A stretch of DNA of 64,000 nucleotides from Eledone cirrhosa (lineage: Eukaryota), in contig OZ024741.1 in NCBI GenBank assembly GCA_964016885.1, positions 66,898,001 to 66,962,000 of the forward strand, given 5' to 3'. The position numbers and the translations under genes were made by a program. Of the stretch, positions 5,524 through 63,040 are shown in pieces. Below the pieces are notes generated by a model, which was not told the DNA's origin, ran no database searches, and saw only the letters and a program-made list of their open reading frames with translations. How positions within the stretch are numbered: the stretch's first letter is position 1; the number at the start of each line of letters is the position of its first letter.

Positions 5524-5565
<42 letters not shown>

Positions 5566-5637
5566 CAGTAGTAGTAGTAGTAGTAGTAATAGTAGTAGTG
5601 GCAATAGCAGCAGCAGTAGCAGCTGTAGCAGCAGTAT

Positions 5638-5682
<45 letters not shown>

Positions 5683-26981: not shown

Positions 26982-27061
<80 letters not shown>

Positions 27062-33949: not shown

Positions 33950-34140
33950 AATAATTGTTTCTACTTTTGGCACAAGGCCAGCAATTTAACCAGTACATTA
34001 CTGGTACTTTATTTTATCGACCCCGTAAGGATGAAAGGCAAAGTTAACCTCGACGGGATTCGAACTCAGACCGTAAAGGGACGTAACTATGCTGGAAAGC
34101 ATGGCGTCCAACCCTCTACCGATACTGCCAATTCACCGCC
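33950..34140 (-). mobile_element. tRNA-headed SINE (same family as 20185)
   Basis: Same A/B boxes and core. Confidence 0.85.
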
Positions 34141-40234: not shown

Positions 40235-40235
<1 letters not shown>

Positions 40236-40292
<57 letters not shown>

Positions 40293-40315
40293 CTATCTCT
40301 CTCTCTCTCACTCCC

Positions 40316-40387
<72 letters not shown>

Positions 40388-40430
40388 CCTATCTATCTAT
40401 CTATCTAACTATCTATCTATCTATCTATCT
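40236..40430. repeat. (TATC)n tract with a (TC)n/CACTCCC interruption at the 5' edge of the Tx1 array
   Basis: Directly visible; the same interruption recurs in 41692..41800. Confidence 0.95.
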
Positions 40431-40435
40431 CCAGA

Positions 40436-41691
40436 CCGTCGTGCCTTGTCCAGCCAAAACGCTCGCCAAAATGGAGCGCGCGCTCTTCCGATTCCTTTGG
40501 AAGAGGCGGGCTCCTTTGGTGAGAAGATCCATCTGCTGCCAACACCCTTCTAACGGAGGGCTGGGGATGCCGTGGTTGACGATGCGCAAACACGCGCTCA
40601 GGCTGCGGCATCTCTACGTATTCCTCACCGGACAACCGGTGTGGGCCCCGTTCGTGAGGCGAGCCTTCCCACGACTCGTCTCGCTGACCGAGCTGCAGTC
40701 CTGGGTCAAGCAGAGACCGAGGAAAATGGGCGACTGGCACATCGAATGTGCTCAGGCGCTCACAGCCCTCTGGCAGGCGGACCCGGAGATCAGTGGAGAC
40801 TCCACTTCGTCATTCTATAGAGGGTTGGTCCGCAGCAAGTGCGACGACGCGCTCGGTGAAACTCTAGGCGTAGAGGAAGATGAACTGGCCAGTCTGTTCG
40901 GTAGGACCTTCCGCCCGGGACCGATGGACAACTTCCAAAAGTCCCTGGCCTGGCAGTGCTACCGAGGAGCTCTACCAGTTCGAGACAAGCTCTACAGACA
41001 TGGGCGCCTGGGCAGGGACCCTGCAAAAAAGATCTGTCCGAGGTGCGTGCGAGACGAAGAAACCGTCGCGCACGCATTCATACACTGCCCGGGCGTCACT
41101 GACCTGTGGGGCTATGTAGAACGACTATTGTCGCGAGTGGGACCAATCCAGTTGACCACCGAGTCCATTGTCATGATCAAACCGCCACCCTCCTTCAAAA
41201 ACGAAGGAGAGGCGGTTTTCCTTTGTGTGATAGCTATGGCGAAAGAGGTTGTATGGTGGACAAGATTGAAAGGGCTGAGGTCAGACACCTTTCTCTCCGG
41301 CCAACAACTGATTCTTTTTTTCAAATACCACTTTGGAAGAAGAATCAGGATGGAGAGAGTGGTGCTGTACCCCAGCAAGTTTTATGAAAGGTGGGTGAAA
41401 GTGGCGAGAATGGCCCGAGTGAATGGGCCTTCTCTCTATATCAGCCTGTAGGTTGAGGAAAAGGAGGAGGAGAGGAAAGGAGTACAAGCTCTTCGTACTC
41501 CTGGAGATGAGGGTTGCACATTTTTTTTCGGGGGTATGTGTTACCCATATAAACTGTCTCCCTCTATTGGGGAAAATCGACTAACTTTTAAATTCCATCT
41601 GTGATAACATTTTACACGTTTTTATTGTATGTAAACTTCCCCCTTTGTATTTGTCCCCTTCTTTTGTGCCCCTGTGGCTAATAAAGAAATA
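40436..41691 (+). mobile_element. Tx1-clade LINE copy A, 5'-truncated (ORF2 C-terminus 40441..41451 plus 3' UTR)
   Basis: GGLGMP, CPRC..ETVAHAFIHC zinc motif. Ends AATAAAGAAATA followed by (TATC)n. Confidence 0.93.
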
Positions 41692-41736
<45 letters not shown>

Positions 41737-41761
41737 CTATCTCTCTCTCTCTCTCACTCCC

Positions 41762-41800
<39 letters not shown>

Positions 41801-41805
41801 CCAGA

Positions 41806-43060
41806 CCGTCGTGCCTTGTCCAACCAAAACGCACGCCAAAATGGAGCGCGCGCTCTTCCGATTCCTTTGGAAGAGGCGGGCTCCTTTGGTGAGAAGATCC
41901 ATCTGCTGCCAACACCCTTCTAACGGAGGGCTGGGGTTGCCGTGGTTGACGATGCGCAAACACGCGCTCAGGCTCCGGCATCTCTACGTATTCCTCACCG
42001 GACAACCGGCGTGGGCCCCGTTCGTGAGGCGAGCCTTCCCACGACTCGTCTCGCTGACCGAGCTGCAGTCCTGGGTCATCAAAGACCGAGGAAAATGGGC
42101 GACTGGCACATCGAATGTGCTCAGGCACTCACAGCCCTCTGGCAGGCGGACCCCGCGATCAGTGGAGCCTCCACTTCGTCATTCTATAGAGGGTTGGTCC
42201 GCAGCAAGTGCGACGACGCGCTCGGTGAAACTCTAGGCGTAGAGGAAGATGAACTGGCCAGTCTGTTCGGTAGGACCTTCCGCCCGGGACCGATGGACAA
42301 CTTCCAAAAGTCCCTGGCCTGGCAGTGCTACCGAGGAGCTCTACCAGTTCGAGACAAGCTCTACAAACATGGGCGCCCGGGCAGGGACACTGCAAAAAAG
42401 ATCTGTCCGAGGTGCGTGCGAGACGAAGAAACCGTCGCGCACGCATTCATACACTTCCCGGGCGTCACTGACCTGTGGGGCTATGTAGACCGACTATTGT
42501 CGCGGGTGGAACCAATCCAGTTGACCACCGAGTCCATTGTCATGATCAAACCGCCACCCTCCTTCAAAAACGAAGGAGAGACGGTTTTCCTTTGTGTGAT
42601 AGCTATGGCGAAAGAGGTTGTATGGTGGACAAGGTTGAAAGGGCTGAGGTCAGACACCTTTCTCTCCGGCCAACAACTGATTCTTTTTTTCAAATACCAC
42701 TTTGGAAGAAGAATCAGGATGGAGAGAGAGGTGCTGTACCCCAGCAAGTTTTATGAAAGGTGGGTGAAAGTGGCGAGAATGGCCCGAGTGAATGGGCCTT
42801 CTCTCTATATCAGCCTGTAGGTTGAGGAAAAGGAGGAGGAGAGGAAAGGAGTACAAGCTCTTCGTACTCCTGGAGATGAGGGTTGCACATTTTTTTTCGG
42901 GGGTATGTGTTACCCATATAAACTGTCTCCCTCTATTGGGGAAAATCGACTAACTTTTAAATTCCATCTGTGATAACATTTTACACGTTTTTATTGTATG
43001 TAAACTTCCCCCTTTGTATTTGTCCCCTTCTTTTGTGCCCCTGTGGCTAATAAAGAAATA
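41806..43060 (+). mobile_element. Tx1-clade LINE copy B, 5'-truncated at the same base as A, one frameshift; 18-bp TSD
   Basis: Near-identical to A. TATCTATCTATCTCCAGA occurs at 41788..41805 and 43061..43078. Confidence 0.93.
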
Positions 43061-43280
43061 TATCTATCTATCTCCAGATGGCATAGACGTTCTTCACATC
43101 GGCTCCGCGAATATTGGAGATATTACGTGTTAACAGTAAGTGTTGGTCTGTATTCTTGCGTTATTGTGTTAATTAACCCCCTTGCCTGGGTCTTCGGACA
43201 CTAGGGTTAATTTATTTCACCCCTTTTGGGGTGAAATTTTTCATCCTAAAAATCTTGCAATTGTCTCTACGCTAGTGGTA

Positions 43281-45161
43281 ATGGAAGCCATTACCACAGG
43301 TAACGATGATACGCCCACTAAACAAACTGAAGGAGAGCGGGTAGCTGAGGCAACAAGCCACCCTACTGAAAGAATAATGATTATTAGAAACATTGAAAAA
43401 GTGGAACCTAACCCTAATGAAAAAAATGTGAAAAAAATTAACTCGGAGAAATTGCCAAAATTAATGGATGCCGTTTCGACTTTTCACGGCGCCACGCCCA
43501 CCAGCAAAGGTGAAAGAGAAGTAGTAGCTGTGACTACAAGTCTCTCGGATAATGAAAATATAAGTGAAGATTTTGAAAAAATGGAGTCTAACCCCAAAGG
43601 GGAAAAAAATGTGAAGGAATACACCAACATAAATAACACAAACTCAACAAAAACAACTTTCGCCCAGACAACAAAAAAATCAATCACATATACACCTATT
43701 GACTTAACTGCCGCCAGAGAGAAACTGGCAGAAGCAAAAAAGCACATAGTCTTGTGGGAGAACGGAATGTTTTCCATTAATCCCCCCCCCCGGAATTCAA
43801 GAAAATGAGACAAGAAAACACTGTTTTGTTTAGAACAGTCCTAAACAACACAAGGAAGCCAGCACAGCCCACCCAAATGGAGATAGAGTTGGTCCTAAAA
43901 GACCATATGAAGAATATTCTCTTCATACGAAAGGACCGACTCTATGGCAGCATTTCTGTTTTAACAAAAGACATAGAAACAGCACAGAGGCTGGGAATGG
44001 GCCTCGACCTACTAGTACAAATGAGGCCCGAAAGAATAGCGCAAATCCCGGATCGCATCTGGCTGGATGACCTCACCCCAATATATATAATTGTAGAGGG
44101 GAGAAGACCAGCATGCTATTCATGCATGGAAAGGGGACACGTTAAGGCTAACTGCCCGAATCGTATCCTCCAAAAAGGACTATTGCTCACACCCACCACA
44201 AACAGTACACCAACACCACCCACCTCCAAACATACACTAACACCACCAACACACACAGCAAACAAAATACAGCCACCACCAACCACAAGCACAACACAAA
44301 TATCACCACCACCAGCACCAAACACAAGCACGACACAAAAATCACCACCACCATCACCAACCACAAGCACAACACAAACATCACCACCACCATCACCAAC
44401 CACAAGCACGACACAAACATCACCACCACCACCACCACAAAACACATTCCAAACAAAAATAAAAGAAACAGCAACAATTCTACCCCTCCCGCAAAAAAAA
44501 ACAACCAGACACCACGTCCCTCCCACCTAGCGCTGAAGAGTTTCCCCCAACTTCTGAAGAAGAAGGAGGAGAAGCCTTCAGACAAGTTAAAAGGAAAAAA
44601 CGAAAGCACACACCCAGCTCACCACAACAACAAATAACCCACACACAAACACCAACTCCAATCAAAAACACCCCACCCTCGACAAACAAAAATAAATCTG
44701 CGCCTCCCCGCTTCGAAACATTGACAGCATCACAAAAAAAGACTTTACAATACACATATATAAATAAAGAAAACAAAAAACTATTTAAATTAATAAACAA
44801 TAGCCCTTTGGTGCAGACCGAAGGGCCAAACTTTATCTCAACAGAGAACTTCACTCATTTAAAAATGATAAAGGTCCCTCTGGACCTTTATCGTTCCTTA
44901 AAAGAACAATTTAAACAGGACGTGAGCCCCCCCCCCCCCCCCTGTTTAAAACCGTTAAATCGCGTCCTCTTGAAAGATTTCCCCATAACCTCCCCTCTCC
45001 CTGACACAACTCCAAATACCCTAACTCCACCACACTCGGATACCCCCACACCACCACAAAACATCCCTCCACCCAACACACCCGACCCCATGGAAATTAC
45101 ACAAAACGGAGAGGTAGGTGCTTTTCTTTCTTCACTTTCAACACCAAAACAGATCAATTGA
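43281..45161 (+). pseudogene. Copy C ORF1 (gag-like, CCHC knuckle), frameshifted and with an internal deletion
   Basis: FIRKDRLYGS and VEGRRPACYSCMERGHVKANC (CX2CX4HX4C). Lacks about 55 aa that copy D has upstream of G.G.EL.VQM. Confidence 0.85.
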
Positions 45162-48100
45162 GAGTTGGTTGTTTGAATGCGCATGGCCTGGGCTCAGCTT
45201 GGAAGCAAGCAAAGCTTCTAAGTGACCTCAGGTCACGAAGTATAGATGTGATGGTTGTTTGCGAGAGTCTGATCAGCAGCGTGCGACAGCTGGCTCCCGC
45301 CTTCGATGACTTTGAGATGCACGCATCTCTCTGTCAACCCGGTGGTGGGGGTGGGGTTGCCGTACTGCTGGATAAACGTCTGGCTCTCGACGTACAGATT
45401 GTTCACTCGGACCCGGGGTGGGGGGTCGATTACTGGTGCTGGACGTCGGAGGCGGTGAAGGCGGGGCTTTCAGACTGGTCGGTCTTTATGCCCCCTACGG
45501 GGCTGAAAGAGCCGACTTCTTCCAGCGTCTGGAGACTTTTCAATAACGTCGCGTTCCCTGCTTTTAGTGGGGGACTGGAATGGAATCCTAGATGCGCGTT
45601 GGGACTATGCAGGGGCATGTCCCGATAGAGGGGGGTGTAGCAGCCTCCAGGGGTTACTCGATCGATTCGACCTGGTCGATAGATTTCGACTAGATTTTCC
45701 AACTGTGCCAACCTGGACCTGGGCAAACCGCAGTGGACAATCTAGATCGTACCTAGATAGGTTTTTGGTTAGGAGTAAGGATAGGGACGTATTTAGTTGT
45801 CCAGAATTGCTCATGGTTGGCTATACAGATCACAAATTAGTGACCTGCGTGGTCAACCTTGATAGAACGCATAGACAGGGTCCCGATTACTGGAAGATGA
45901 ACTTGTCCTTGCCGGCAAAGGAAGCTTACAGAACCGGATTAGTAGCTTAGTTAAGATGCGGTTGACGGGAGCGATCGTCAACAGCAGGTGGTGGGTATCT
46001 CTAAAGAGAGAGATTAGAGTAAGTTCGATAGGTTACAGTAAGGAACTAGCGGCGAATAGGAGGGAAAGGGAGTTGACAGATAAATTAGAAGAGGCGATTA
46101 GGAGCGGAGACGTGGCCAGAGTGTTAGCGTCGAGAACGGCGTTGAGCCAGTTCTTTGACGTGAAGCACGAAGGCTGCGTTGTCCGAAGTAAAATACGTGC
46201 TTTAGGAAACGAGGGGACCAAAGCTGTTAGCTGGGACCGCGCGACAGAAGCCAAGAGTGGGATTAAATCCACCATTCGGTCTTTGCGAGACCAGGATGGA
46301 CGGGTGATCCTTGAACCTGAGCGGATGTGCGAGGCCTTTCAAAGGCACTTTGCTCGACTGTTCGGAGGGGGCTGAGGGCCGGACGGGGATGTGGACTTCG
46401 GTCCATACCTTGACGGTCTACCGCGTCTTTCGAGCGGCGAAGCGGAGTGCTGCGAAAGGCCAATCATAGCCACTGAAATCGGGGAAGCGCTCAGCCAATG
46501 CAGCAGACGCAAATCTCCGGGTTTCGATGGTCTACCATGCGAACTTTATTTAGCTATGCCGGTCTTGTTCTCCGAACTCCTCGAGGCTGTCTATTGCAAC
46601 TGGCAACAGAACGGGAGAATTCCTGTTCTGTGACCAAGGGCGTAGTCACGCTAGTGAGGAAGGACGAGAGCAAGGGGGACGACTTAAGTAACTTTAGGCC
46701 CATAACTCTGCTGAATGCAGAGTTAAAGATTTTGGCCAAGGTGTTAGCGAAGAGGTTGGCGCTTGTGATGGGTGGCTTGGTGGGAGACGCGCAGACATGC
46801 GCTATCCCGTCCAGGTCCATTCACGACAACCTCCACCTCATGCGATACATCGTAGAGAGGGTTGGGAACGAACCCGGCTTTGGTGGGGCCCTGATTAACT
46901 TGGATCAATCTAAGGCGTTCGATAGGGTCGACCATGGTTACCTGGATGCGGTGCTAGCGGCGGCTGGCTTCGGACCCGTTTTCAGGGGCTGGATTTCTGC
47001 CATGCACAGTGGCAACGTCTTCTCTATCTTCTCTAGGGTTAAAGTAAACGGCTACCTCTCGGAGCCGTTTCAAATCACCCGGTCCATCAGGCAGGGGTGC
47101 CCCCTCTCCTCCCTTCTGTACGTATTGGCTCTCGAGCCAGTGCTGCGGAAGTTGGAGTTGCTGCGGGGCATACCCTTGGAACCGGGATTGCACAAAGCGG
47201 TCTCGGCCTATGCCGACGACGTAACAGTAATGGTGGCGGACGCGTCGGAAATCGGGGCGATCGCCACCCTACTGGAGGAATACGAAAGGCTGACGGGGGC
47301 TAGGCTGAACCGGGACAAGTCAGTCGGTTTGCAACTCGGAACGTGGAGGGGCAAACCGATGCCGTTAGACGGTGTCGTCGGACGGTGGACGGAGGGCCCG
47401 GTGAAGCTGCTCGGGGTCTGGTTCGGACCGGACCTCCAGGTGGAGAAGGATTGGGGCGAGGTGACGAGCAGGGTATTTGCGCTGACCCAGAAGTGGGCCA
47501 AGTGCAAACTATCACTGAAAGGTCGGGCGGAGGTGGCGAACGCTTACATAGCGTCCGTCATCTACTACCGCCTGACTGTCGTGCCTTGCCCTAAGGAAAC
47601 GCTCACCATCATGGAGTGCATGCTCTTCCAGTTCCTCTGGAAGAAGCGGCCTCCCATGGTGAGGAGATCCATCTGCTGCCAGCACCCTTCGAAAGGAGGG
47701 CTGGGTATGCCGTGGCTGTTGATGCGTAGGCACGCATTGAGGCTACGGCATCTACAGGTATTCCTCACCGGTCAGCCGGTGTGGGCCCCGTTTGTGAGGC
47801 GAGCCTTCCCACAGCTCGTCTCGCTCACCGAGCTGCAATCCTGGGTGAAGCAAAGACCGAGAAAACTGGGCAACTGGCACACCGAGTGTGCCCAGGCACT
47901 CACGGCTCTCTGGCAAGCGGACCCGACTATCAGTGGAGAATCCACCTCGTCATTCTATAGAGGGCTGGTGGCTAGCAGGGGCGACGACACCCTTGGAGAG
48001 TCGCTAGGCATGGAGGAGGACGAACTGGCCAGCCTGTTCGGTAGAACTTTCGGCCCGGGACCCATGGACAACTTCGATAGGGCCCTAGCCTGGCAGTGCT

Positions 48101-48591
48101 ACCGGGGGGCACTGCCCGTTCGAGAAAAGCTCTACAGACACGGGCGCCCGGGAAGGGATCCCGCGAAAAAGATCTGTCCCAGATGCGTGCGCGACGAGGA
48201 AACCGTTGCGCACGCACTGGTACACTGCCCGGGCGTTGCCGATCTGTGGGGCTACGTCGAACGACTTCTGTCGCGTGTGGCGCCGATTCGATTGGCCGCC
48301 GAGTCTGTGGTGAACATCAAGCCGCCTCCTCCCTTCAGAGATGAAGCAGAGGCGGTCTTTCTGTGCGTAATAGCCATGATGAAAGAGGTTGTGTGGTAGA
48401 CGCGCCTGAAAGGTGTGAGGTCGGGTGACTTTCTCTCCGGCCAACACCTGGTTTACTTCTTCCGATACCACTTCGGAAGAAGGATCAGGATAGAGAGAGA
48501 AGTGCTTGGCCCCAGACAGTTTTATGAAAGGTGGGTGAAAATGGCGAGAATGGCTCGTGTAAATGGGCCTTCTCTCTACATTGTTCTGTAG
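45158..48591 (+). pseudogene. Copy C ORF2 (APE-RT-CCHC), several frameshifts and stops
   Basis: GCLNAHGL, GDWN, YTDH, NFRPITLLN, LDQSKAFDRVDH, RQGCPLS, YADD and CPRC..HALVHC spread across split ORFs. Confidence 0.92.
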
Positions 48592-49098
48592 GTGAAGAAG
48601 TGAAGAGGAAAGGGGGAGCGCCTCCTCTCTGGGCTTCCCCCGGGAAAAGGGTTGCACACTTTTCGGGGGTATGTGCAATCCCCAACACGCCCCCTCCCTT
48701 TTGAGGACTTTTTATTATTATATTATTCTTATTGTTATTCCTTTTTTCTTTACTCGCATTTATGTAAACTCCCCCTGTGTATTTGTCCCTTCCTTTGTGC
48801 CCTAGTGGCAAATAAAGAAATCTATCTATCTATCTATCAATCTATCTATATATTTATCTACCTATCAATCTAGCTGTCGTCTGTTCTACAGTGTGGATGT
48901 CATTCACTTCGCACAGAAGTTTTGTTCAAATTTATTGAGGAAATTTTGTGAGTTCAAACTTAATTTTGATACAATTGTGTAGCTTGACCCTCCGTCTGAA
49001 CTGTCAGGCGGTGGGTCAGCTCATCTTTACCCCTCCTAGAGGTGAAAAACCTGTTTTAAAAAAAATTTTGTGTAAAAAATTTCAATCGTCTAACAGAA

Positions 49099-50975
49099 AT
49101 GTTAAACGCAGCGAACGAAAATAGTGGTGGGGGGACAGCGGTAAGAGTTGTAAGCTCGCACGCTTTAGTCCTCCCTTCCTTCCCAACTAACGTCATAGAG
49201 AAGGAAGGAAAAATGAAAATAAAAACGGACGAATCTGCGGAGAAAAAATTAAATGACGAAAACAACGAAAAAAAAAATTTGAAAAATTGCATGACAATAC
49301 TAATAACACAAACAAAGACACAACAAACAAAAAAATAACAGTTGAAAATAACATCATATCAGAAAACAAAGCAGACGACAGGATTTCATTTGCACAGAAA
49401 ACAAAGAAATCTTTGACTTATATAGCGGAAAACATTTCAGATGTGGTACGAAGGATCACGGACGCAAAACAATACATAAGTGAAGGTGAGAATGGTATTT
49501 TATTGGTAAAAATGCCTCAAGAATTCACGAAAGACATTGAAAGCCGAACGGTCAAGTTTCGGACCATCAACAACAGTACAAAAAAACCTGAACAGCCTTC
49601 TCAAGCAGATATCAAAACAGTACTCGCAGAAGTACTGAATGAAACAACTTTCATAAGAAAAGACAGACTGTATGGAAGCCTAGCAATTATCATGAAGAAC
49701 GAATCGGCGGCAAAAAAATGTGCTTTGTCACCGATTCGTTCGAAAAATTTCACCTTTTATCCATCTTATATGGGAAAAAAAACTCAACGCATATGGCTGG
49801 ATGCAATGATGCCAGATGTGGACTACTGCTGGCTCATAGCTGGCTTCATCGATCCAGTGAATGACAACGTGATTTCCATTGGGAAAACCACAGGCAATGC
49901 GTTCAGTGGAACAGGTATAGAGCTGGTAGTACAAATGAAGCCTGAACGCATCGCCCAAATACCCGACAGAATCCTATTAGAGGACCACGGGTATATAAAC
50001 ATTAGCGTGGAGGGGAGAAGGCCGTCCTGCCATATCTGTGCAGGCAGAGGGCACCTGAAGGCCGCTTGTCCCCAACTCAACAAAAAGAAAACCCTGCTAC
50101 CAACACCAGCTCCACCACCACCACCACAACAGATAAACAAACAACAAAACTCAGTCCCACCCAACCCGTCCCTCAGTAACACCACAACACCACCACAACA
50201 CAAACAGTCACAACACATTACCCCAAAACAAAATACAGGCCCACCCAACCTCTCACTCAATAAAACAACACAACCACCGCAGACACAACACACAACACAG
50301 TCTAACATAGTGACATCCATCTCCCCCACAAAGAAAACCAACACGGAAACATTACCAGCAAACATACCTCTTCCCTCCAACACTGAAGATAACCCAACGA
50401 ATTCGGAGGAAGAAACGGAGTCCTTCAGACAGATTAAAAGGAAAAAAAGAAAACATGTGCAAAACACACAAGGACAAACAACCCCCACCCAAATCGCAAC
50501 ACAATCTAACAAAACAGAAAACACCCCTCCAGCAACAAACAAAACCAAACCTGCCCCTCCCCTCTTCGAAACACTCACACCATCGGAAAAAAAGACATTA
50601 CACTATACTTACATCAACAGAAACAATAATAAATTAAATGAACTCATATACAATAATCCTTCGGTACAAACCGAAGGTGTAAACTTTGTTTCATCAGAAA
50701 ACCACCCACATTTAAAACTAATAAAAATCCCAATGAACCTCTACCAAAAACTAAAAAAGGATTTTAAGGAGGACGTAGGACCACCCTCTGTCAAACCCAT
50801 AAACCGCGTCCTACTAAAAAGCTTTCCCCCTCCCCTTCCCCTCCCCAACACAACTCCAAACACCCCAACCCCACCACACACCGACGACCCCACACCACCA
50901 CAAGACACCCCTTCACCCAACACCCCCGACCCCATGGAAGTCGTGCAACCCGAACCCCGGGAAGCGGAAAGGTAG
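49099..50975 (+). CDS. Copy D ORF1p (nucleic-acid-binding, CCHC knuckle, Pro/Thr-rich linker); one 1-nt frameshift near 49285
   Basis: The ATG 49099 frame matches the copy E N-terminus. D has ttgaaaaattg where E has ttgaaagaattg. Main frame 49287..50975 has CHICAGRGHLKAAC. Confidence 0.8.
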
Positions 50976-51008
50976 GTCTCTACACTCTCCTTTGGCTCTG
51001 CCGCCCAC

Positions 51009-54000
51009 ATGGATGTGTTAAGAGTAGGATGTTTGAATGCACGTGGCCTGGGCTCAACTTGGAAGCAAGCAAAGCTTCTAAATGACCTCAGGTCATGTAG
51101 TATAAATGTAATGGTTATCTGTGAGACTCGAATCAGCGTCATGCGGCAGCTGGCCCCCACCTTCGATGACTTTGAGGTGCATGCATCTCTCTGTCAACCT
51201 GGAGGTGGGGGTGGGGTTGTCGTGCTGCTGCAAAAACACCTGGGTCTTGCCGTACAGGTTGTGCACTCGGACCCGGAGGGTCGTTTGTTGGTGCTAGACG
51301 TTGGCAGTAGTGAAAGTGCGGCCTTGAGACTGGTCGCCGTCTACTCCCCTTTCGGAGCTGAACGGCCCGACTTCTTCCAGCGTTTGGAGACTTTTCTGGG
51401 AACGTCGCGTTCCCTGCTTCTAGCGGGGGATTGGAATGACATCCTAGATGCACGTTGGGACTATGCAGGAGCATGTCCTAATAGAGGGGGGTGTAACAGC
51501 CTCAAGGGGTTACTCGACCGTTTTAACTTGGTCGATAGATATCGACTAGATTTTCCAACTGTGCCTACCTGGACTTGGAGAAACCACAGTGGTCAATCTA
51601 GATCGTACTTAGATAGATTCTTAGTTAGAAGTAAGGATAGGGACATATTAAGCTGTCCAGAAATGCGCACGGTTGGCTACACGGATCACAAATTAGTGAC
51701 CTGCGTGGTCAATCTCGAGAAAACACATAGACAGGGTCCCGGTTACTGGAAACTTAATTTGTCTTTACCGGCAAAAGAGACTTACAGAAACCGGATTAGC
51801 AGATTAGTTAAGGAGAGGTTGACGGGTGCAATCGTCAACAACCGATGGTGGGCATCTCTCAAAAGAGAGATTAGAACAGAATCAATAAGTTATAGCAAGA
51901 TGTTAGCTGCCAATAGGAATAGAAACGAGAAAGAATTAACAGGTAAATTAGAAGAGGCAATCAAGAGCGAAGATGTGGCCAGAGTGCTGGCATCGAGGAC
52001 GGCCTTGAACCAGTTTTTCGATGCAAAGCATGAAGGCTGCGTCATTCGAAGTAAAATACGTGCTCTAGGTAATGAGGGGGCCAAAGCCGTTGGATGGGCC
52101 CGCGTGACAGAAGCTAAAAGTGGAAATCGATCCACCATCCGGTCGTTGCAAGACGAAGATGGACGAGTGATCCGGGAGCCTAAGCAGATGTGCGAGGCCT
52201 TTCAAAAGCACTTTGCCCGATTGTTCGGGGGAGGCGAGGGTCCGGGCCGGGGCGTGGATTTCGGTCCATACCTCGACGGCCTGCCGCGTCTCTCGAGCAA
52301 AGAGGCAGAGTCCTGCGAGGGACCAATCTCGGCTGATGAGATCGGAGATGCGCTGAGCCAATGCAGCAGACGCAAATCTCCAGGTCTCGATGGTATACCT
52401 TACGAACTTTATTTAGCAATGCCGGTCTTCTTCTCCGAACTCCTCGAAGCGGTCTACTGCAATTGGCAGCAGAACGGGAGAATTCCTTGTTCTGTAGCCA
52501 AGGGCGTAGTCACGCTGGTGAGGAAGGACGAGAAAAAGGGGGATAGTATAAATAATTTTCGGCCCATAACCCTGCTAAACACAGAGTTAAAGATTTTGGC
52601 CAAGGTGTTAGCAAAGAGGTTGGCGCTTGTCGTGGGTGGCCTGGTGGGAGATGCGCAGACATGTGCTATCCCATCCAGGTCCATTCACGATAACCTCCAC
52701 CTCATGCGATACATCATAGAGAGGGTTGGCAACAAACCCGGCTTCGGTGGGGCCCTGATCAACTTGGATCAGTCTAAGGCCTTCGATAGGGTCGACCATG
52801 GTTACCTGGATGCGGTGCTAGCGGCGGCTGGGTTCGGTCCTGTTTTCAGAGGCTGGATCACTGCCCTACATAGCAACCACATCTGTTCTAGGATCAAGGT
52901 GAACGGCTACCTTTCAAAGCCGTTCGAAATCACACGATCCATTCGACAGGGGTGCCCTCTCTCCTCCCTTCTGTACGTATTGACTCTCGAGCCTTTACTG
53001 AGGAAGTTGGAGTTGTTGCAGGGTATCCCCCTGGAACCAGGATTGAGCAAAGCGGTGTCGGCCTACGCCGATGACGTAACAGTAATGGTATCAACCGACT
53101 CGGAGATCGAGGCGATCGGTACCTTACTGGAGGAGTACGAAAGGTTGTCAGGAGCGAAACTGAACCGGGAAAAATCCATCGGGCTGCAACTCGGAACGTG
53201 GAGAGGCAAACCGATGCCTCCTGACGGTGTCGTCGGACACTGGACGGAGGGCCCGGTAAAGTTGCTTGGGGTCTGGTTTGGACCGGACCTCCAGGTGGAA
53301 AAGAACTGGAACGAGGTTACGAACAAGGTGTTTGCACTAACCCAGAAATGGGCCAAGTGTAAGCTGTCCCTAAAAGGCCGGGCGGAGGTGGCGAACATTT
53401 ACATAGCGTCCGTCACTTACTACCGCCTGACTGTCGTGCCTTGCCCTAAGGAAACACTCACCACCATGGAACGCATGCTCTTCCAATTTCTTTGGAAGAA
53501 GCGTCCTCCTATGGTGAGAAGATCCATCTGCTGCCAACGACCTTCGAAAGGAGGGCTGGGGATGCCGTGGTTGATGATGCGTAGGCACGCATTAAGGCTA
53601 CGGCACCTACAGGTATTCCTCACTGGTCAACCGGTGTGGGCTCCGTTCGTGAAACGAGCCTTTCCGAGACTCGTCTCACTCACCGGGCTACAGTCCTGGG
53701 TCAAGCAAAGATCCGGAAAACTGGGAGACTGGCACACTGAGTGTGCTCAGGCGCTCAGGGCTCTCTGGCAAGCGGGCCGGACCATCGGTGGAGAATCCAC
53801 CTCATCATTCTATAGAGGGCTGGTGACTAGCAGGGGCGATGACACCCTTGGAGAGTCGCTGGACATGGAAGAAGACGAACTGGCCAGCCTGTTCGGTAGG
53901 ACTTTCGGCCCAGGACCAATGGACAACTTCCAGAAGTCACTGGCCTGGCAGTGCTACCGAGGGGCTCTACCCGTTCGAGAGAGGCTCTACAGACACGGGC

Positions 54001-54446
54001 GCCCGGGCAGGGATCCCTCAAAAAAGATTTGCCCTAGATGCGTGCGTCACGAAGAAACCGTAGCGCACGCATTGGTGCAATGTCCGGGCGTGGCTGATCT
54101 GTGGGGCTACGCCGAACAACTGCTGTCGCGGGTGGCGCCGATTAAATTGACCGCCGAGTCCGTGATGACAATCAAACCGCCTCCCCTCTTCACAAAGGAA
54201 GCAAAGGCGGTTTTTCTGTGCGTAATAGCCATGTTGAAAGAGGTTGTTTGGTGGACACGATTGAAAGGTCTGAGGTCAGGCAACTTCCTCTCTGGCCATA
54301 GTCTGGTCTACTTCTTCCGATATCACTTCGGAAGAAGGATAAGAATGGAGAGAGAGGTGCTTGGCCACAGGCAGTTTTATGAAAGGTGGGTGATAGTGGC
54401 GAGAATGGCTCGTGTAAATGGGCCTTCTCTGTATACCATCCTGTAG
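51009..54446 (+). CDS. Copy D ORF2p: APE endonuclease, reverse transcriptase and C-terminal CCHC (1145 aa, uninterrupted)
   Basis: EN: GCLNARGL, ICETR, VYSP, GDWN, SYLDRFL, YTDH. RT: KSPGLDG, NFRPITLLN, LDQSKAFDRVDH, RQGCPLS, YADD. C-terminus: GGLGMP, CPRC..EETVAHALVQC. Confidence 0.97.
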   Translation: MDVLRVGCLNARGLGSTWKQAKLLNDLRSCSINVMVICETRISVMRQLAPTFDDFEVHASLCQPGGGGGVVVLLQKHLGLAVQVVHSDPEGRLLVLDVGSSESAALRLVAVYSPFGAERPDFFQRLETFLGTSRSLLLAGDWNDILDARWDYAGACPNRGGCNSLKGLLDRFNLVDRYRLDFPTVPTWTWRNHSGQSRSYLDRFLVRSKDRDILSCPEMRTVGYTDHKLVTCVVNLEKTHRQGPGYWKLNLSLPAKETYRNRISRLVKERLTGAIVNNRWWASLKREIRTESISYSKMLAANRNRNEKELTGKLEEAIKSEDVARVLASRTALNQFFDAKHEGCVIRSKIRALGNEGAKAVGWARVTEAKSGNRSTIRSLQDEDGRVIREPKQMCEAFQKHFARLFGGGEGPGRGVDFGPYLDGLPRLSSKEAESCEGPISADEIGDALSQCSRRKSPGLDGIPYELYLAMPVFFSELLEAVYCNWQQNGRIPCSVAKGVVTLVRKDEKKGDSINNFRPITLLNTELKILAKVLAKRLALVVGGLVGDAQTCAIPSRSIHDNLHLMRYIIERVGNKPGFGGALINLDQSKAFDRVDHGYLDAVLAAAGFGPVFRGWITALHSNHICSRIKVNGYLSKPFEITRSIRQGCPLSSLLYVLTLEPLLRKLELLQGIPLEPGLSKAVSAYADDVTVMVSTDSEIEAIGTLLEEYERLSGAKLNREKSIGLQLGTWRGKPMPPDGVVGHWTEGPVKLLGVWFGPDLQVEKNWNEVTNKVFALTQKWAKCKLSLKGRAEVANIYIASVTYYRLTVVPCPKETLTTMERMLFQFLWKKRPPMVRRSICCQRPSKGGLGMPWLMMRRHALRLRHLQVFLTGQPVWAPFVKRAFPRLVSLTGLQSWVKQRSGKLGDWHTECAQALRALWQAGRTIGGESTSSFYRGLVTSRGDDTLGESLDMEEDELASLFGRTFGPGPMDNFQKSLAWQCYRGALPVRERLYRHGRPGRDPSKKICPRCVRHEETVAHALVQCPGVADLWGYAEQLLSRVAPIKLTAESVMTIKPPPLFTKEAKAVFLCVIAMLKEVVWWTRLKGLRSGNFLSGHSLVYFFRYHFGRRIRMEREVLGHRQFYERWVIVARMARVNGPSLYTIL

Positions 54447-55654
54447 GTAAAGAAGTAAAGGAGAGGGGAGCACCTTCTCCATGTGCTCCCCGGGCAAAGG
54501 ATTGCACACTTTTTCGGGGGTGTGTGCAACCCCCATCACGTCCCCTCCCTTTTGAGGTTATTTTCGATTATTTTCATGTTACACCCTTTTTACTCGATTA
54601 TATGTAAACTCCCCCTTTGTATTTGTCCCTTCTTTTTATGCCTTTATGGTAAATAAAGAAATCTATCTATTTATCTACCTATCAATATATATAATTATAT
54701 ATCTATCTATCTATCCTCTAGCTAGCTATCTATGTATTATATTTCAAATACAAATAAAACGTATATAAACATATAAACACACACACACAAGCACACATAA
54801 ACACATACACATATATACACACACATTACAAATCGATTTTCCAACACTCCTACCTCTTACTACAATCTAAACCTATAAACCTAAATAAAGAAGTCTAGTT
54901 CCACCAAAACAAACGGAATGAAAAATTATACATTACTATGGTAAAAAAACACGTGGGCTATTTTAATGAGAGGGTTAATTAATGAACTGGTGATATCAGA
55001 TGGAGCAAAAATATATTAGACTGACGGATACTAAAACACGAAATAAAATGATCTTGAACCAAGAAAGAATTTCAAGTGTCATAGTTTATGTCAAATTTAT
55101 ATTTCAAATTAATTTCAGTAAATCTGTAGCTACAAGGAGCTGAGCCAAGTATCATTAAAACGAAGACTGTTACGTGTACTTTTACTCCTCCAAAGCATAT
55201 TTTATTTAAATTAAACTTGCGAAGTATAGAATTTTATAAGTTTCTGCCTCAGTAAGACAAGATAGTCCTATAATTTTATGACGCTCAGGCCATTTGGCTG
55301 ATATCTAGAAATAATTTGAAATTATTCTAGTGTAAAACTTATGTAGAAATGAAGCTTAAATCTAACAACGGACTCCCTAAATTAACTAATCTTTATCCTG
55401 GATTATATGTCGTTGTGAAGACGTCATTAACTGTGTTCACAACATATTTAGTTGAACGTATATTTAGTACTGTTTCCGACATTTTAATGAGAGATAAGAA
55501 AACCCAAAACCAAAAACAAAGAAACCGACTGTAAATATTTGAACGATGTGACTTAAGGATCGTTTTGTTTTGTTTTGTTTCAGATGCGGTGCAATTAGTC
55601 GCATCATCTTCATATCAGTAAATCAAATAATGTTATCATCATCATCATCATCAC

Positions 55655-55950
55655 TTTTTCCAGCCGCAACCTGGTGCAGTCAGCGACTAACCCAGGTTCT
55701 GCTGCACGTCAGGCTGAGGAGGCCAAACTCTCCAAATACCGGTCGCTCTCCGATAGGTTTGCGGTCGTACCCTTCGCAGTGGAGACTTCTGGTGTCCTCG
55801 GCCCTAGGGCTACCGCCCTACTGACCACCATAGGCGCTGAGCTGGCCAGCCGCAGGTGTGAGCCTCTCGAGTTGGAATGGCTCTTCCAGCGCGTCTCCCT
55901 TGCCGTCTTCGGGGAAACGCCTTCTCCATTCTGTCCGCCAGGGCTGTGGG
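55655..55950 (+). mobile_element. Short 3' fragment of the same CRE-like element as 23540..24546
   Basis: Close match to ~24215..24510 (cagccgcaacctggtgcagtc...gggctgtgg). Confidence 0.88.
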
Positions 55951-56269
55951 GCGGCTATCAATAATATTGACTGACTTGTCATTTTATCAGTCAACCTACT
56001 GCAACACTTACATATAGTGCACTGATCTGATTCACTCTGAATACATCTTTTGAATCTATAACAGGTGGTAGAGAAAAGCTTTAATAAGATTAACATACTA
56101 ATCGAAACCAGTAATATTTGATAAAATTTAAATTAATTTAATTTGACAATTATAAAAATATTTATTCTATCGGATTAAAGAAAATAGAATCTTTAAATGT
56201 GTTTTTCCATTTTTACTTTTTCGCACACACAAACAAACGCATACTGATACACAAACACACACACACACA

Positions 56270-56341
<72 letters not shown>

Positions 56342-56348
56342 CTGTATA

Positions 56349-56539
56349 TAATTGTTTCTACTTTTGGCAAAAGGCCAGCAATTACCCCAGTATATTACTA
56401 GTACTTTATTTTATCTACCCCGCAAGGATGAAAGGCAAAGTTAACATCGGCGGGATTTGAACTCAGAACGTAAAGGGACATAACTCTATGCTACAAAGCA
56501 TGGTGTCCAACGCTCTACCTATTCTGCCAATCCACCGCC
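56349..56539 (-). mobile_element. tRNA-headed SINE (same family as 20185); its head abuts the (TATC)n tract preceding copy E
   Basis: Same core and B box. Confidence 0.85.
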
Positions 56540-56542
56540 TTG

Positions 56543-56612
<70 letters not shown>

Positions 56613-56849
56613 AACGATCTTGCTGTCGTCTGTTCTACAGCGTAGACGTAATTCACTTCGCGCAGAAGTTTTGTTCCAATTTATTGCGGAAATTTTGTAA
56701 GTTTAATTTTAATTTTGATACTATTGTGTAGCTTGACCCCCCCCCCTCTGAACTGTCAGGCGGTGGGTCAGCTCATCTTCGCCCCTCCCAGCGGTGAAAA
56801 ACCTGTTTTTAAAAATTTTGTGGCATAAAATTTCAATCGTCTGGCAGAA

Positions 56850-58754
56850 ATGTTAAACGAAGCTAACGAAAATAGTGGTGGGGGGACAGCGGTAAGAGTT
56901 GTAAGCTCGCACGCTTTAGTCCCCCCTTCCTTCCCAACTAACGTCATAGAGAAGGAAAGAAAAAATAAAATAAAAACAGACGAATGTGCGGAGAAAAATG
57001 ACGAAAACACAAATCTGGAGATTATGTCCAACAACAAAAAAAATTTGAAAGAATTGCATGACAATATTAATACCACAAACAAAGAAACAACAAACACAAA
57101 AATAACATTTGAAAACAACATCATAACACAAAGCATAGCAGACGACAAAGTCAACACCAATAATATTTCATTGCACAAACAACAAAGAAATCTTTAACAT
57201 ATATACCTGAAAATATTTCAGATGTGACACAAAGAATAAAAAACGCCAAACAATACATAACTCAGGGGGAAAATGGAATCTTATCGGTAAAAATGCCCCA
57301 AGAACTCACCAAAGATATTGAAAGTCGGACGGTCGTTTTCCGCACCATCAACAACATCTCAAAAAAAACCTCAACAACCAACACAAGCAGAAATTAAAGC
57401 AGTACTTACAGAAGTACTTAATGAAGCCACTTTCATAAGAAGAGACAGGCTGTATGGAAGCCTAGCGATTATTATGAAGAACGAATCAGCGGCAAAAAAA
57501 TATGCTTTGTCGCCAATTCGTTCGACAAATTTTACCTTTTATCCATCTTATATGGGTAAAAGAACTCAGCGCATATGGCTGGATGCGATGATGCCAGATG
57601 TGGACTACTGCTGGCTCATAGCTGGCTTCATCGATCCAGCGAATGACAACGTGATTTCCATTGGGAAAACCACAGGCAATGTGTTCAGTGGAACAGGTAT
57701 AGAACTTGTAGTGCAAATGAAGCCTGAACGCATTGCCCAGATACCCGACAGAATCCTATTAGAGGGCCACGGGTATATAAACATTAGCGTGGAGGGGAGA
57801 AGGCCGTCCTGTCATATCTGTGCAGGCAGAGGGCACCTGAAGGCGGCTTGTCCCCAAATCAACAAGAAGAAAACCCTGCTACCAACACCAGCTCCACCAC
57901 CACCACAACAGATAAACAAACAACAAAACTCAGTCCCACCCAACCCGTCCCTCAGTAAAACTACACCACCACCACAACACAAACAGACACAACACATTAC
58001 CCAAAAACAAAACACAGTCCCACCCAACCCCTCACTCAATAAAACAACACAACCACCGCAGCCACAACACACAACACAGTCTAACATAGTGACATCCATC
58101 TCCCCCACAAAGAAAACCAACACGGAAACATTACCAGCAAACATACCTCTTCCCTCCAACACTGAAGATAACCCAACGAATTAGGAGGAAGAAACGGAGT
58201 CCTTCAGACAGATCAAAAGGAAAAAAAGAAAACATGTGCAAAACACACAAGGCCAAACAACCCCTACCCAAATGTCAACACAATCCAACAAAACACAAAA
58301 CACCCCTCCAGCAACAAACAAAACCAAACCTGCCCCTCCCCTCTTGGAAACACTCACACCATCCGAAAAAAAGACATTACACTATACTTACATCAACAGA
58401 AAAAACAATAAATTAAATGAACTCATAAACAATAACCCTTCGGTACAAACCGAAGGGGTAAACTTTGTTTCTTCAGAAAACTACCCACATTTAAAATTAA
58501 TAAAGATCCCAATGAACCTCTACCAAAAACTAAAAAAGGATTTTAAGGAGGACGTAGGACCACCCTCTGTCAAACCCATAAACCGCGTCCTCCTAAAAAG
58601 CTTTCCCCCTCCCCCTCCCCTCCCCAACACAACTCCAAACACCCCAACCCCACCACACACTGACGACCCTACACCACCACAAGACACCCCTTCACCCAAC
58701 ACCCCCGACCCCATGGAAGTCGTGCGACCCGAACCTCGAGAAGCAGAAAGGTAA
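56850..58754 (+). pseudogene. Copy E ORF1 (frameshifts and a premature stop)
   Basis: Three ORF pieces homologous to D ORF1, including CHICAGRGHLKAAC. TAG at 58182..58184. Confidence 0.9.
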
Positions 58755-58787
58755 GTCTCTACACTGTCCTTTGGCTTTGCCGCCCAC

Positions 58788-61700
58788 ATGGATGTGTTAA
58801 GAGTAGGATGTTTGAATGCACGTGGCCTGGGCTCAACTTGGAAGCAAGCAAAGCTTCTAAATGACCTCAGGTCACGTGGTATAAATGTAATGGTTATCTG
58901 TGAGACTCGGATCAGCGTCGTGCGGCAGCTGAACCCTACCTTCGATGACTTTGAGGTGCACGCATCTCTCTGTCAACCTGGAGGTGGGGGTGGGGTTGTC
59001 GTACTGCTGGAAAAACACCTGGGTCTCGCCGTACAGGTTGTTCACTCGGACCCGGAAGGTCGTTTATTGGTGCTAGGCGTTGGCAGTAGTGGAGGTGCGG
59101 CCTTGAGACTGGTCGCCGTCTACTCCCCTTCCGGAGCTGAACGACCCGACTTCTTCCAGTGTCTGGAGACTTTTCTGGGAACGTCGCGTTCCCTGCTTCT
59201 AGCGGGGACTGGAATGACATCCTAGATGCACGTTGGGACTATGCAGGAGCAGGTCCTAATAGAGGGGGTGTAACAGCCTCAAGGGGTTACTCGACCGTTT
59301 TAACTTGGTCGATAGATATCGACTAGATTTTCCAACTGTGCCAACCTGGACTTGGACGAACCATAGTGGTCAATCTAGATCGTACTTAGATAGATTCTTA
59401 GTTAGAAGTAAGGATAGGGACATATTAAGCTGTCCAGAAATGCTCACGGTTGGCTATACAGATCACAAATTAGTGACCTGCGTAGTCAACCTTGAGAGAA
59501 CACATAGACAGGGTCCCGGTTACTGGAAACTTAATTTGTCTTTACCGGCAAAAGAGGCTTACAGAGACCGAATTAGCAGATTAGTTAAGGAGAGGTTGAC
59601 GGGTGCAATCGTCAACAACCGATGGTGGGCAGCTCTCAAAAGAGAGATTAGAACAGAATCAATAAGTTATAGCAAGATGTTAGCTGCCGATAGGAATAGG
59701 AACGAGAAAGAATTAACAGGTAAATTAGAAGAGGCAATCAAGAGCGAAGATGTGGCCAGAGTGCTGGCATCGAGGACGGCCTTGAGCCAGTTTTTCGATG
59801 TAAAGCACGAAGGCTGCATCATTCGAAGTAAAATACGTGCTCTAGGTAATGAGGGGGCCAAAGCCGTTGGCTGGGCCCGCGTGACAGAAGCTAAGAGTGG
59901 AAATCGATCCACCATCCGGTCTTTGCAAGACGAGGATGGGCGGGTGATCCGGGAGCCTAAGCAGATGTGCGAGGCCTTTCAAAGGCACTTTGCCCGATTG
60001 TTCGGGGGAGGCGGGGGTTCGGGCGTGGACGTGGATTTCTGTCCATACCTCAACGGCCTGCCGCGTCTCTCGAACGAAGAGGCAGAATCCTGCGAGGGAC
60101 CAATCTCGGCTGATGAGATCGGGGATGCGCTGAGCCAATGCAGCAAACGCAAATCTCCAGGTCTCGATGGTATACCTTACGAACTTTATTTGGAAATGCC
60201 GATCTTCTCCGAACTCCTCGAAGCAGTCTACTGCAATTGGCAGAAGAACGGGAGAATTCCTTGTTCTGTAGCCAAGGGCGTATTCTCGCTGGTGAGGAAG
60301 GACGAGAACAAGGGGGATAGTATAAATAATTTTCGGCCCATAACCCTGCTAAACACAGAGTTAAAGATTTTGGCCAAGGTGTTAGCAAAGAGGTTGGCGC
60401 TTGAAGTGGGTAGCCTGGTGGGAGATGCGTAGACATGTGCTATCCCATCCAGGTCCATTCACTACAACCTCCACCTCATGCGCTACATCATAGAGAGGGT
60501 TGGCAACAAACCCGGCTTCGGTGGGGCTCTGATCAACTTGGATCAGTCTAAGGCGTTCGATAGGGTCGACCATGGTTACCTGGATGCGGTGCTAGCGGCG
60601 GCTGGGTTCGGCCCTGTTTTCAGAGGCTGGATCCCTGCCTTACATAGCAACCACATCTGTTCTAGGATCAAGGTGAACGGCTACCTTTCGAAGCCGTTCG
60701 AAATCACACAATCCATTCGACAGGGGCACCCTCTCTCCTCCCTTCTGTACGTATTGACTCTCGAGCCTTTACTGAGGAAGTTGGAGTTGTTGCAGGGTAT
60801 CCCTCTGGAACCAGGATTGAGCAAATCGGTGTCGACCTACGCCGATGACGTAACAGTAATGGTATCGACCGACTCGGAGATCGAGGCGATCGGCACCTTA
60901 CTGGAGGAATACGAAAGGTTGTCAGGAGCGAAACTGAACCGGGAAAAATCCATCGGGCTGCAACTCGGAACGTGGAGAGGTAGACCGATGCCTCCCGACG
61001 GTGTCGTCGGACACTGGACGGAGGGCCCGGTGAAGTTGCTTGGGGTCTGGTTTGGACCGGACCTCCAGGTGGAAAAGAACTGGGGCGAGGTTACGAGCAA
61101 GGTGTTTGCACTGACCCAGAAATGGGCCAAGTGTAAGCTGTCCCTGAAAGGTCAGGCGGAGGTGGCGAACATTTACATAGCGTCCGTCACCTACTACCGC
61201 CTGACTGTCGTGCCTTGCCCTAAGGAAACACTCACCACCATGGAACGCATGCTCTTTCAATTTCTTTGGAAAAAGCGCCCTCCTATGGTGAGAAGATCCA
61301 TCTGCTGCCAACGACCTTCGAAAGGAGGGCTGGGCATGCCGTGGTTGATGATGCGTAGGCACGCATTAAGGCTACGGCACCTACAGGTATTCCTCACTGG
61401 TCAACCGGTGTGAGCTCCGTTCGTGAGACGAGCTTTTCCGACCTCGTCTCGCTCACCGAGCTGCAGTCCTGGGTCAAGCAAAGATCCGGAAAACTGGGCG
61501 ACTGGTACACTGAGTGTGCCCAGGTGCTCAGGGCTCTCTGGCAAGAGGACCCGGCCATCGGTGGAGAATCCACCTCGTCATTCTATAGAGGGCTGGTGGT
61601 TAGCAGGGGCGATGACACCCTTGGAGAATCCTTGGACATGGAAGAGGACGAACTAGCCAGCCTGTTCGGCAGGACTTTCGGCCCGGGACCAATGGACAAC

Positions 61701-62219
61701 TTCCAGAAGTCACTGGCCTGGCAGTGCTACCGGGAGGCTCTACCCGTTCGAGAAAAGCTCTACAGACACGGGCGCCCGGGCAGGGATCCCTCGAAAAAGA
61801 TTTGCCCTAGATGCGTGCGTCACGAAGTAACCGTTGCGCACGCATTGGTGCAATGTCCGGGCGTGGCTGATCTGTTGTGCTACGCCGAACGACTGCTGTC
61901 GCGGGTGGCGCCGATTCGATTGACCGCCGAGTCCGTGATGACAATCAAGCCGCCTCCCCTTTTCACAAAGGAAGCAAAGGCGGTTTTTCTGCGCGTAATA
62001 GCCATGTTGAAAGAGGTTATTTGGTGGACAAGATTGAAAGGTCTGAGGTCAGGCAACTTCCTCTCTGGCCATAGTCTGGTCTACTTCTTCCGATATCACT
62101 TCGGAAGATGGATAAGCATGGAGAGAGAGGTGCTTGGCCACAGGCAGTTTTATGAAAGGTGGGTGATAGTGGCGAGAATGGCTCGTGTAAATGGGCCTTC
62201 TCTGTATACCATCCTGTAA
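58788..62219 (+). pseudogene. Copy E ORF2 (frameshifts and stops)
   Basis: Four ORF pieces colinear with D ORF2. Stops at 60430..60432 and 61411..61413. Confidence 0.93.
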
Positions 62220-62423
62220 GTAAAGAAGTGAATGAGAGGGGAGCACCTTCTCCATGTGCTCCCCGGGCAAAGGATTGCACACTTTTTCGGGGCCCCCATC
62301 ACGTCCCCTCCCTTTTGAGGTTGTTTTCGATTATTTTCATTTTATACCCTTTTTACTCGGTTTTATGTAAACCCCCTCTTTGTATTTGTCCCTTCTTTTT
62401 ATGCCTTTATGGTAAATATAGAA

Positions 62424-62477
<54 letters not shown>

Positions 62478-63040
62478 ATATAATTACATTCAAAATATTT
62501 TGTTCACAGCTGGGCTATTTTCAAAAATATATAATTGACATGTCCAAAATGCTGCGCAGTAGCAATGAACTCGTAACCACAATTACATAATATTTTACGG
62601 GAAAAAAAAGATGGAACTATTTGTGCTTATCTTACCTTCCACCAATAGTCCAAAATAAGCGATACATAAATAACCCAGCATTACAACATAAACATGATTT
62701 ATCTCAATACCATTACTGCACTTGAGCTGATGAACACAACCACAAAGATATGGTCCGAACGAGGAAGAACCGAACTCCCACTGTCATCGCCCCCCTCCCA
62801 TCTCTGCGTATGGTGAGCAAATAAGGTTCCACGTGCTGGCCTCCCCACAGCCCCGGCGGACAGAATGGAGAAGGCGTGTCCCCGGAGGATGGTAAAGGAG
62901 ATGCGTGGTAGAAAACAGATTTAATGTCGGGAGGGATTTAGTTAAAAAGAAACACTTGGTATGGAGGAACTGGAACTGGAAAATATGGTGAATTTTGGTA
63001 ATTATGTACATAATGACTACGGTGGGGATATTGGTGGACT

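Follow-up and report, generated by a model that had tools for sequence, protein, structure and literature searches.

The 64,000-nucleotide stretch of Eledone cirrhosa DNA analysed here (assembly GCA_964016885.1, contig OZ024741.1, positions 66,898,001 to 66,962,000 of the forward strand; hereafter the window) raises the question of whether a group of retrotransposons selects a tetranucleotide microsatellite as its insertion site. Self-comparison and translation identified five same-strand L1/Tx1-type elements (copies A to E) at 40436-62423. Every copy carried same-strand TATC-class repeat on both ends, found as Tandem Repeats Finder (TRF) tracts and, between B and C, as a 12-nt run at 43061-43072. 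An earlier reading of this DNA (the original prediction) had described five same-orientation copies with (TATC)n on both sides of each, and both points were confirmed. Judging from their sequences, the copies probably represent a TATC-targeting lineage of Tx1-like elements, which would be a new target within the known habit of microsatellite targeting. The copies and their flanking tracts are as follows.

40235..40430, + strand: compound microsatellite (TATC)n(TC)n-ACTCCCTC-(TATC)n, 195 nt, original target tract upstream of the stack.
40436..41688, + strand: copy A, 5'-truncated, with the last ~335 codons of open reading frame (ORF) 2 including zf-RVT, plus the 3' untranslated region (UTR); likely a tandem duplicate of B.
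41689..41805, + strand: second copy of the compound microsatellite (TRF tract 41692-41800); its end (41788-41805) forms the left arm of the 18-nt duplication of B.
41806..43057, + strand: copy B, 5' truncation point as in A, 98.3% identical to A, one frameshift.
43058..43078, + strand: right arm of B's duplication, exact over 43061-43078, 21 nt with one mismatch adjoining the element.
~43073..48819, + strand: copy C, full-length but decayed (frameshifts, stops, ORF1 deletion), likely the earliest insertion in the tract.
48820..48869, + strand: degenerate TATC tract behind C (TRF tract 48820-48872), holding D's left duplication arm (exact 48851-48869).
48870..54660, + strand: copy D, full-length, best preserved.
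49099..50975, + strand: D ORF1, with a CX2CX4HX4C knuckle and one frameshift in an A-run near 49267.
51009..54446, + strand: D ORF2, intact, 1145 aa, with apurinic/apyrimidinic-type (APE) endonuclease, reverse transcriptase (RT) and zf-RVT.
54661..54737, + strand: D's right duplication arm (exact over 54668-54686, 26 nt if one mismatch is allowed), followed by what is left of the old degenerate TATC tract.
56543..56612, + strand: pure (TATC)17, upstream flank of E, directly behind a short interspersed repeat (56345-56542).
~56613..62423, + strand: copy E, full-length but with several frameshifts and stops; it extends ~9 nt further at the 5' end than D and is a separate locus.
62424..62481, + strand: pure (ATCT)n, downstream flank of E (TRF).

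Pfam matches to Exo_endo_phos and RVT_1 were above cut-off and that to zf-RVT just under it, and the catalytic residues of APE endonucleases were conserved (N10, E39, D141, N143, D202, D226 and H227). Both the profile and the predicted fold of D ORF2 gave human L1 ORF2p as the best match, ahead of R2. The AlphaFold model of D ORF2 had a mean pLDDT (predicted local distance difference test) of 71.6, with the endonuclease hairpin (residues 183-201) under 50, and no inference on specificity was drawn from it. An ORF1 with a CCHC zinc knuckle is a feature of the Tx1 clade; the pattern CX2CX4HX4C was seen in the ORF1 translations of C, D and E, with a Pfam zf-CCHC match only for C (E-value 0.0035, under cut-off). 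At the A-run that holds the frameshift in D ORF1, other contigs carry one A more. The traits of the L1 group were present, namely an N-terminal APE endonuclease, RT and a C-terminal zinc motif, target site duplication, variable 5' truncation and no terminal repeats. By these encoded domains and structural traits, the elements classify as L1-group (Tx1-like) retrotransposons without long terminal repeats (non-LTR).

Over the last ~1.25 kb, identity was 98.3% between A and B, 95.2% between D and E, 87% between C and D/E, and 81-82% between A/B and the others, which bears out the predicted subdivision into about three subfamilies (A/B, C and D/E). A and B begin at the identical ORF2 nucleotide behind an identical compound tract, (TATC)n(TC)nACTCCCTC(TATC)n, with 116 of 116 aligned letters equal, and a private ATAT variant is common to their 3' junctions. 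Because the truncation point, the upstream compound microsatellite and the junction variant are common to both and identity is 98.3%, A and B are likely one insertion, either copied at the DNA level or present as two haplotypes assembled in tandem. Polarised differences (6 on A, 14 on B, 2 not assignable) leave true duplication versus haplotypes undecided. Differences at codon positions 1, 2 and 3 numbered 118, 96 and 314 between D and C, 40, 39 and 116 between D and A, and 42, 36 and 76 between D and E; this third-position bias among C, D, E and A/B indicates separate source elements, that is, separate coding lineages. We also considered E as a DNA copy of D, which was ruled out, as the flanks fail to align (score 24) and the 5' end of E is longer. 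A reading as five independent insertions was rejected given the likely A/B duplication, and the independent events are likely at most four (C, D, E and A/B), in two tracts. The cluster on which the prediction built its case for GATA specificity is real, but was overstated in its count.

The flanks were then compared to decide between target DNA and an added tail. An exact 19-nt direct repeat (48851-48869 and 54668-54686) brackets D; it has TATT, TACC and CAAT interruptions and occurs in the whole window only at 48851 and 54668. It begins no more than 7 nt after the element end, so at most 7 nt of repeat were added. The degenerate TATC tract runs on past the right arm, which shows that the tract pre-existed D. 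Because the exact duplication carries private interruptions, the TATC around D is target DNA and not an added tail. The repeat flanking B is an exact match over 18 nt and ends in the non-repeat letters TCCAGA. The last ~6 nt of B's right arm, TCCAGA, appear to be the 5' end of C, and B would therefore have inserted after C. Duplications with non-repeat letters at D and B, together with the lack of an added tail, support the original proposal that the TATC is target-derived. Each extended duplication (D and B) has one mismatch, in the right arm and within 7 nt of the element 3' end. D sits 24 nt behind the 3' end of C, and B lies directly before its 5' end. C and E have TATC on their 5' sides with no element upstream of it, and none of the five other matches of the short repeat neighbouring E is followed by TATC. 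All five 3' ends read AATA(A/T)AGAA followed by ATCT or ATAT, with TATC within the next 60 nt in 5/5, and AATAAA lies only 3 nt from the 3' junction. A 3' poly(A) tail is typical of the L1 group; it was absent from the inspected 3' junctions of all five copies.

To compare target use with background, TATC-class sites were counted in the window, where they make up 330 of 44,147 background positions (0.75%) and 15.7% of the microsatellite sites in nine classes. Counting two independent tracts, p = 5.6e-5 for random insertion and 0.025 given insertion into some microsatellite; counting four events, the values are 3e-9 and 6e-4. All these p-values are post hoc, as the window was picked for this feature. 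Perfect runs of at least 12 nt comprised 1292 nt of TA, 576 nt of CA and 500 nt of TATC/GATA, so that the claim of far more abundant other repeats holds for TA but not for CA. (TA)n, with twice as many sites and a T/A step in every unit, received none of the four events, and the junctions lie in TATC although (TC)n is present in the same compound tract. A target-specific family has been defined by the target occurring in >20% of the flanks of all genomic copies (PMC4494074, in the part covered); in the window, 4/4 events lay in TATC.

Relatives were sought among named proteins, metagenomes and sequencing runs. Among named proteins, the nearest came from Argonauta hians (63%), with a more distant match in the cuttlefish Acanthosepion pharaonis (51% over RT). 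Trees were built with FastTree (139 rows, 5 dropped for short match) and an IQ-TREE quick search (53 chosen rows); they contain no named Tx1/Repbase row and no canonical L1 row, and their base is unresolved. In these trees, the window copies group with Argonauta (99) and next with the cuttlefish protein and a sister clade of array-forming elements (99). Of 479 loci in the metagenome scan, 80 were retained, all of them distant (26-37% in the best segment); several were flanked by U2 (Keno-like), near U1 small nuclear RNA (snRNA), or in (TC)n (Kibi-like). Rows flanked by (TC)n formed their own group (SH-aLRT, the Shimodaira-Hasegawa-like approximate likelihood ratio test, 100), apart from the window copies, with a deeper sister relation possible. 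As the window copies do not group with these (TC)n-flanked elements, microsatellite targeting here likely had an independent origin, as far as the trees indicate.

The sister clade was found on contigs C3-C19 of one record (G001), titled a bacterial metagenome-assembled genome but with animal-like flanks. It gave 88 profile matches, the full-length ones 40-41% identical to D, and one locus (L081) is 74% identical to the cuttlefish protein. These elements form same-strand head-to-tail arrays with a 6.4-6.9 kb period, observed over up to ~65 kb, mostly intact and near-identical within a contig.

Array loci of the sister clade in G001: L081-L119, L122, L123, L126-L139, L144, L145.

An A6 run was found at 0/38 distinct sister-clade junctions, with no microsatellite or poly(A) between units, and a family-specific 16-18-nt stretch follows AATAAA, at array ends too. 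This spacer also occurs at the array 5' end in L138 and L139, and not in L128 or L135. Candidate origins of the arrays are concatemer insertion, DNA amplification and self-targeting. A telomeric reading of them was rejected, as the arrays run into ordinary AT-rich DNA on both the 5' and the 3' side (on different contigs) and Rfam finds nothing at eight flank loci. Elsewhere, reads and contigs from 4 of 20 listed runs, aligned to D, point to a large, diverged family under two organism labels (451, 17,990 and 2,571 contigs; 91,866 reads). TATC was seen at 0/24 loose read or contig ends sampled of 2,388, a count that is uninformative because repeat-adjacent ends were skipped. Viral contigs yielded no relatives, and the ESM Atlas returned RT and endonuclease clusters without names or taxa.

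Several observations weigh against TATC targeting. Just two independent tracts are involved, in a window chosen for the feature, and the flank evidence comes from this window only. Two further TATC/GATA tracts are empty (26982-27061 and, on the other strand, 30764-30820). The duplications of C and E cannot be delimited inside pure repeat. The left TCCAGA of B is also similar to the 5' end of C and to the sequence of the element itself where it is truncated (CCTGA); B may therefore be a full-length copy with an internal deletion, in which case the 18-nt match would be no true target duplication. A TATC run was found at 0/80 of the distant metagenome loci. At the sister arrays it was found at 0/38 distinct junctions (60 matches in 41 loci, overlapping loci included), and yet the arrays form. 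A sixth, older copy in the window also lies outside TATC.

~4467..5411, + strand: copy F, an old relative that belongs to another family (66% nucleotide identity) and is truncated at its 5' end; its terminal AATAAAGAA is followed by TAA-rich sequence and (TAG)n.

Its ending is shared with the cluster copies. Copy F ends ~30 nt before the (TAG)n tract at 5440-5731, so the statement that trinucleotide tracts carry no copies does not strictly hold. The tract is (TAG)97, and F may be a sister family with another repeat target. Because the sister arrays lack TATC and F ends beside TAA/TAG repeats, TATC targeting is likely lineage-specific.

Among the alternatives, the elements may be drawn to the ends of copies already inserted by their own clade, with TATC merely present and carried along by read-through at the RNA end. 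B and D do lie within 25 nt of the ends of C, and the sister clade, with its 88 profile matches, builds same-strand head-to-tail arrays without any microsatellite. Such self-directed stacking nevertheless seems improbable: C and E have 5' TATC without an upstream element, E lies 1.9 kb from D in a pure tract of its own behind the short repeat, the tract upstream of C is a 195-nt compound microsatellite, and the stack in the window mixes three subfamilies with separate duplications, whereas the sister arrays are near-identical. We give slightly less credence to an absence of real specificity, in which a loosely T/A-cutting endonuclease, an element-borne TATC tail, local clustering and DNA duplication coincide by chance in a repeat-rich window. 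The A/B duplication, the strict count of two tracts (p no lower than 0.025 once insertion into a microsatellite is taken as given), the end of F at TAA/TAG repeats and the post hoc selection of the window would all fit chance. It is opposed by (TA)n, which has twice the sites and holds 0/4 events, by the duplication of D, which starts within 7 nt of the element and so leaves no room for a long added tail, and by the 5' TATC at C and E, for which a 3' tail cannot account.

It is very improbable that mis-assembly around microsatellites accounts for most of the cluster. A and B, 1.7% apart, could be haplotypes placed in tandem, and no read or contig record spans the region, but C, D and E are 5-15% apart with third-position bias, and the private letters on both sides of D are unexpected from mis-joining at pure repeat.

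With TATC targeting as the preferred reading, insertion would proceed by target-primed reverse transcription into TATC tracts, with ~18-19 nt of target duplicated. The first nick would likely fall on the (TAGA)n strand, probably at a T/A step, because GAA is followed by AT at all 3' junctions, and the second cut would lie 18-19 nt away. Cleavage of a transcript normally occurs 10-30 nt past the AATAAA signal. With AATAAA so near the junction, the RNA probably runs past it into a few AUCU units, which would pair with the nicked strand, and the mismatches in the extended duplications of D and B are located where RNA-templated letters would be. Targeting would thus likely combine endonuclease preference with RNA-DNA pairing. 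The part of PMC1950540 covered reports that, in L1 and Tx1L, the hairpin of the endonuclease influences which target is chosen, and it raises pairing of the RNA 3' end with the target as a further factor. C likely entered the compound microsatellite first, followed by D into the tract behind C and B into the tract before it; the B unit would later have been copied at the DNA level to give A, and E would have inserted separately into another tract. As each insertion would leave target on both sides, later copies could stack head to tail. The predicted seeding of arrays by target duplication agrees with the nested positions of D and B around C, but TATC duplication is not required for arrays in this clade, since the sister clade forms them without it.

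A broader interpretation, which we hold to be doubtful as a whole, would join these lineages. A cephalopod-wide Tx1-like clade may have dropped poly(A) and prime from an RNA ending 15-20 nt past AATAAA. In octopods that end would be (AUCU)n, steering insertions to GATA microsatellites by base pairing, and in the sister lineage it would be the family-specific spacer, giving homogeneous arrays of tens of kb that are possibly structural (centromere-like) DNA. If so, it would be a short stretch at the RNA end, and not the endonuclease, through which target choice could be switched.

Tx1-type elements that target microsatellites are already known, so that the principle itself is not new. R1 and R4 are the clades found among Waldo, Mino and Dong. 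The following comparisons draw on those parts of the cited papers that were covered. Members of the Tx1 clade have (TC)n, (TTC)n, (TTCC)n and (TTTC)n as targets (PMC4494074); in teleosts, Kibi and Koshi of this clade occupy (TC)n and (TTC)n, and in crocodilians Tx1 families prefer (TTCC)n/(TTTC)n (PMC4494074, PMC3812793). Like these, the window copies are APE-type L1-group elements in a microsatellite, in fixed orientation and with repeat on both sides. Unlike Kibi and Koshi, they use (TATC)n, a strand that also contains purines, and have an octopod host; they also group apart from the Kibi-like (TC)n-flanked metagenome elements, in trees whose rows did not include named Kibi or Koshi sequences. 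Other microsatellite-targeting non-LTR elements are Waldo (ACAY), Mino (AC), Dong (TAA) and Togen (TG) (PMC3812793, PMC4640811), of which Togen is NeSL-related (PMC4640811) and Waldo is a tetranucleotide case. The window copies likewise land in an abundant simple repeat but belong to another clade and use another repeat. SINEU-3 shows tandem insertions sandwiching a target duplication (PMC4494074), and so resembles the window in that sequential insertions give head-to-tail stacks with duplicated target between them; unlike the window copies, it is non-autonomous and targets a Mariner transposon.

The probable annotation class of the window copies is the cephalopod L1-Tx1 repeat class (PMC13282606, PMC8967140), which in Octopus vulgaris has 13 recently active families, 421 insertions and 80 consensus sequences (PMC13282606). 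The word 'target' is absent from the main text of PMC13282606 and TATC/GATA from one of its supplements, and the covered part of PMC8967140 contained no target preference. GATA/TATC was not among the targets TC, TTC, TTCC, TTTC, ACAY, AC, TAA and TG in the covered parts of PMC4494074, PMC3812793, PMC4640811, PMC1950540, PMC8967140, PMC5035012 and PMC13282606. No GATA-targeting element was found in the literature, in a search that lay outside Repbase, Dfam and Fig. 3 and the supplements of PMC4494074 (which may name a GATA-type target) and in which bracketed repeat names match poorly. It is conceivable, though we lean against it, that such an element has already been described. If confirmed genome-wide, GATA/TATC would be a new target in a lineage apparently separate from Kibi/Koshi, and it would explain, as we infer, the shared flanks of GATA markers in these genomes. 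The near-intact copy D makes the endonuclease amenable to assay, and close relatives with other landing habits (F and the sister clade) offer a compact system for separating control by the endonuclease from control by the RNA 3' end.

Further observations concern the coding region and other repeats. A splice-donor-like AG|GT(A/G)GT lies at the end of ORF1 just upstream of ORF2 in C (45113-45120), D (50970-50977) and E (58750-58757). Reads show it before ORF2 in another subfamily as well, and it was present in 7 of the 8 sister-clade loci inspected (L082, L087, L093, L096, L100, L104 and L110; not L081), with protein identity of only 40%. The 5' UTRs of C, D and E contain GT(A/G)AGT (43136, 48948 and 56697), followed ~90 nt later by pyrimidine-AG in D and E (49039 and 56791), which resembles a small retained intron. 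In the metagenomes, Tx1-like elements adjoin U1 genes (L022, L033, L062 and L063) and one lies near U4 (L069), with the ends of L023, L029, L034 and L037 belonging to the same set of loci; the covered parts of the literature do not list U1 as a Tx1 target.

The window also holds retroelement-like fragments (10849-11589, 23674-24537, 26300-26500, 29300-29900 and 55660-55940), which we presume to be of Penelope-like, RTE-like and restriction-endonuclease types; the two of them that were tested had no Pfam match. An interspersed repeat of ~190 nt, likely a short interspersed element (SINE), has five near-full copies (86-90%), two of them in tandem, at 20186-20564, 25715-25904, 33951-34140 and 56345-56542, the last being the repeat before E, which we take to resemble an octopus SINE.

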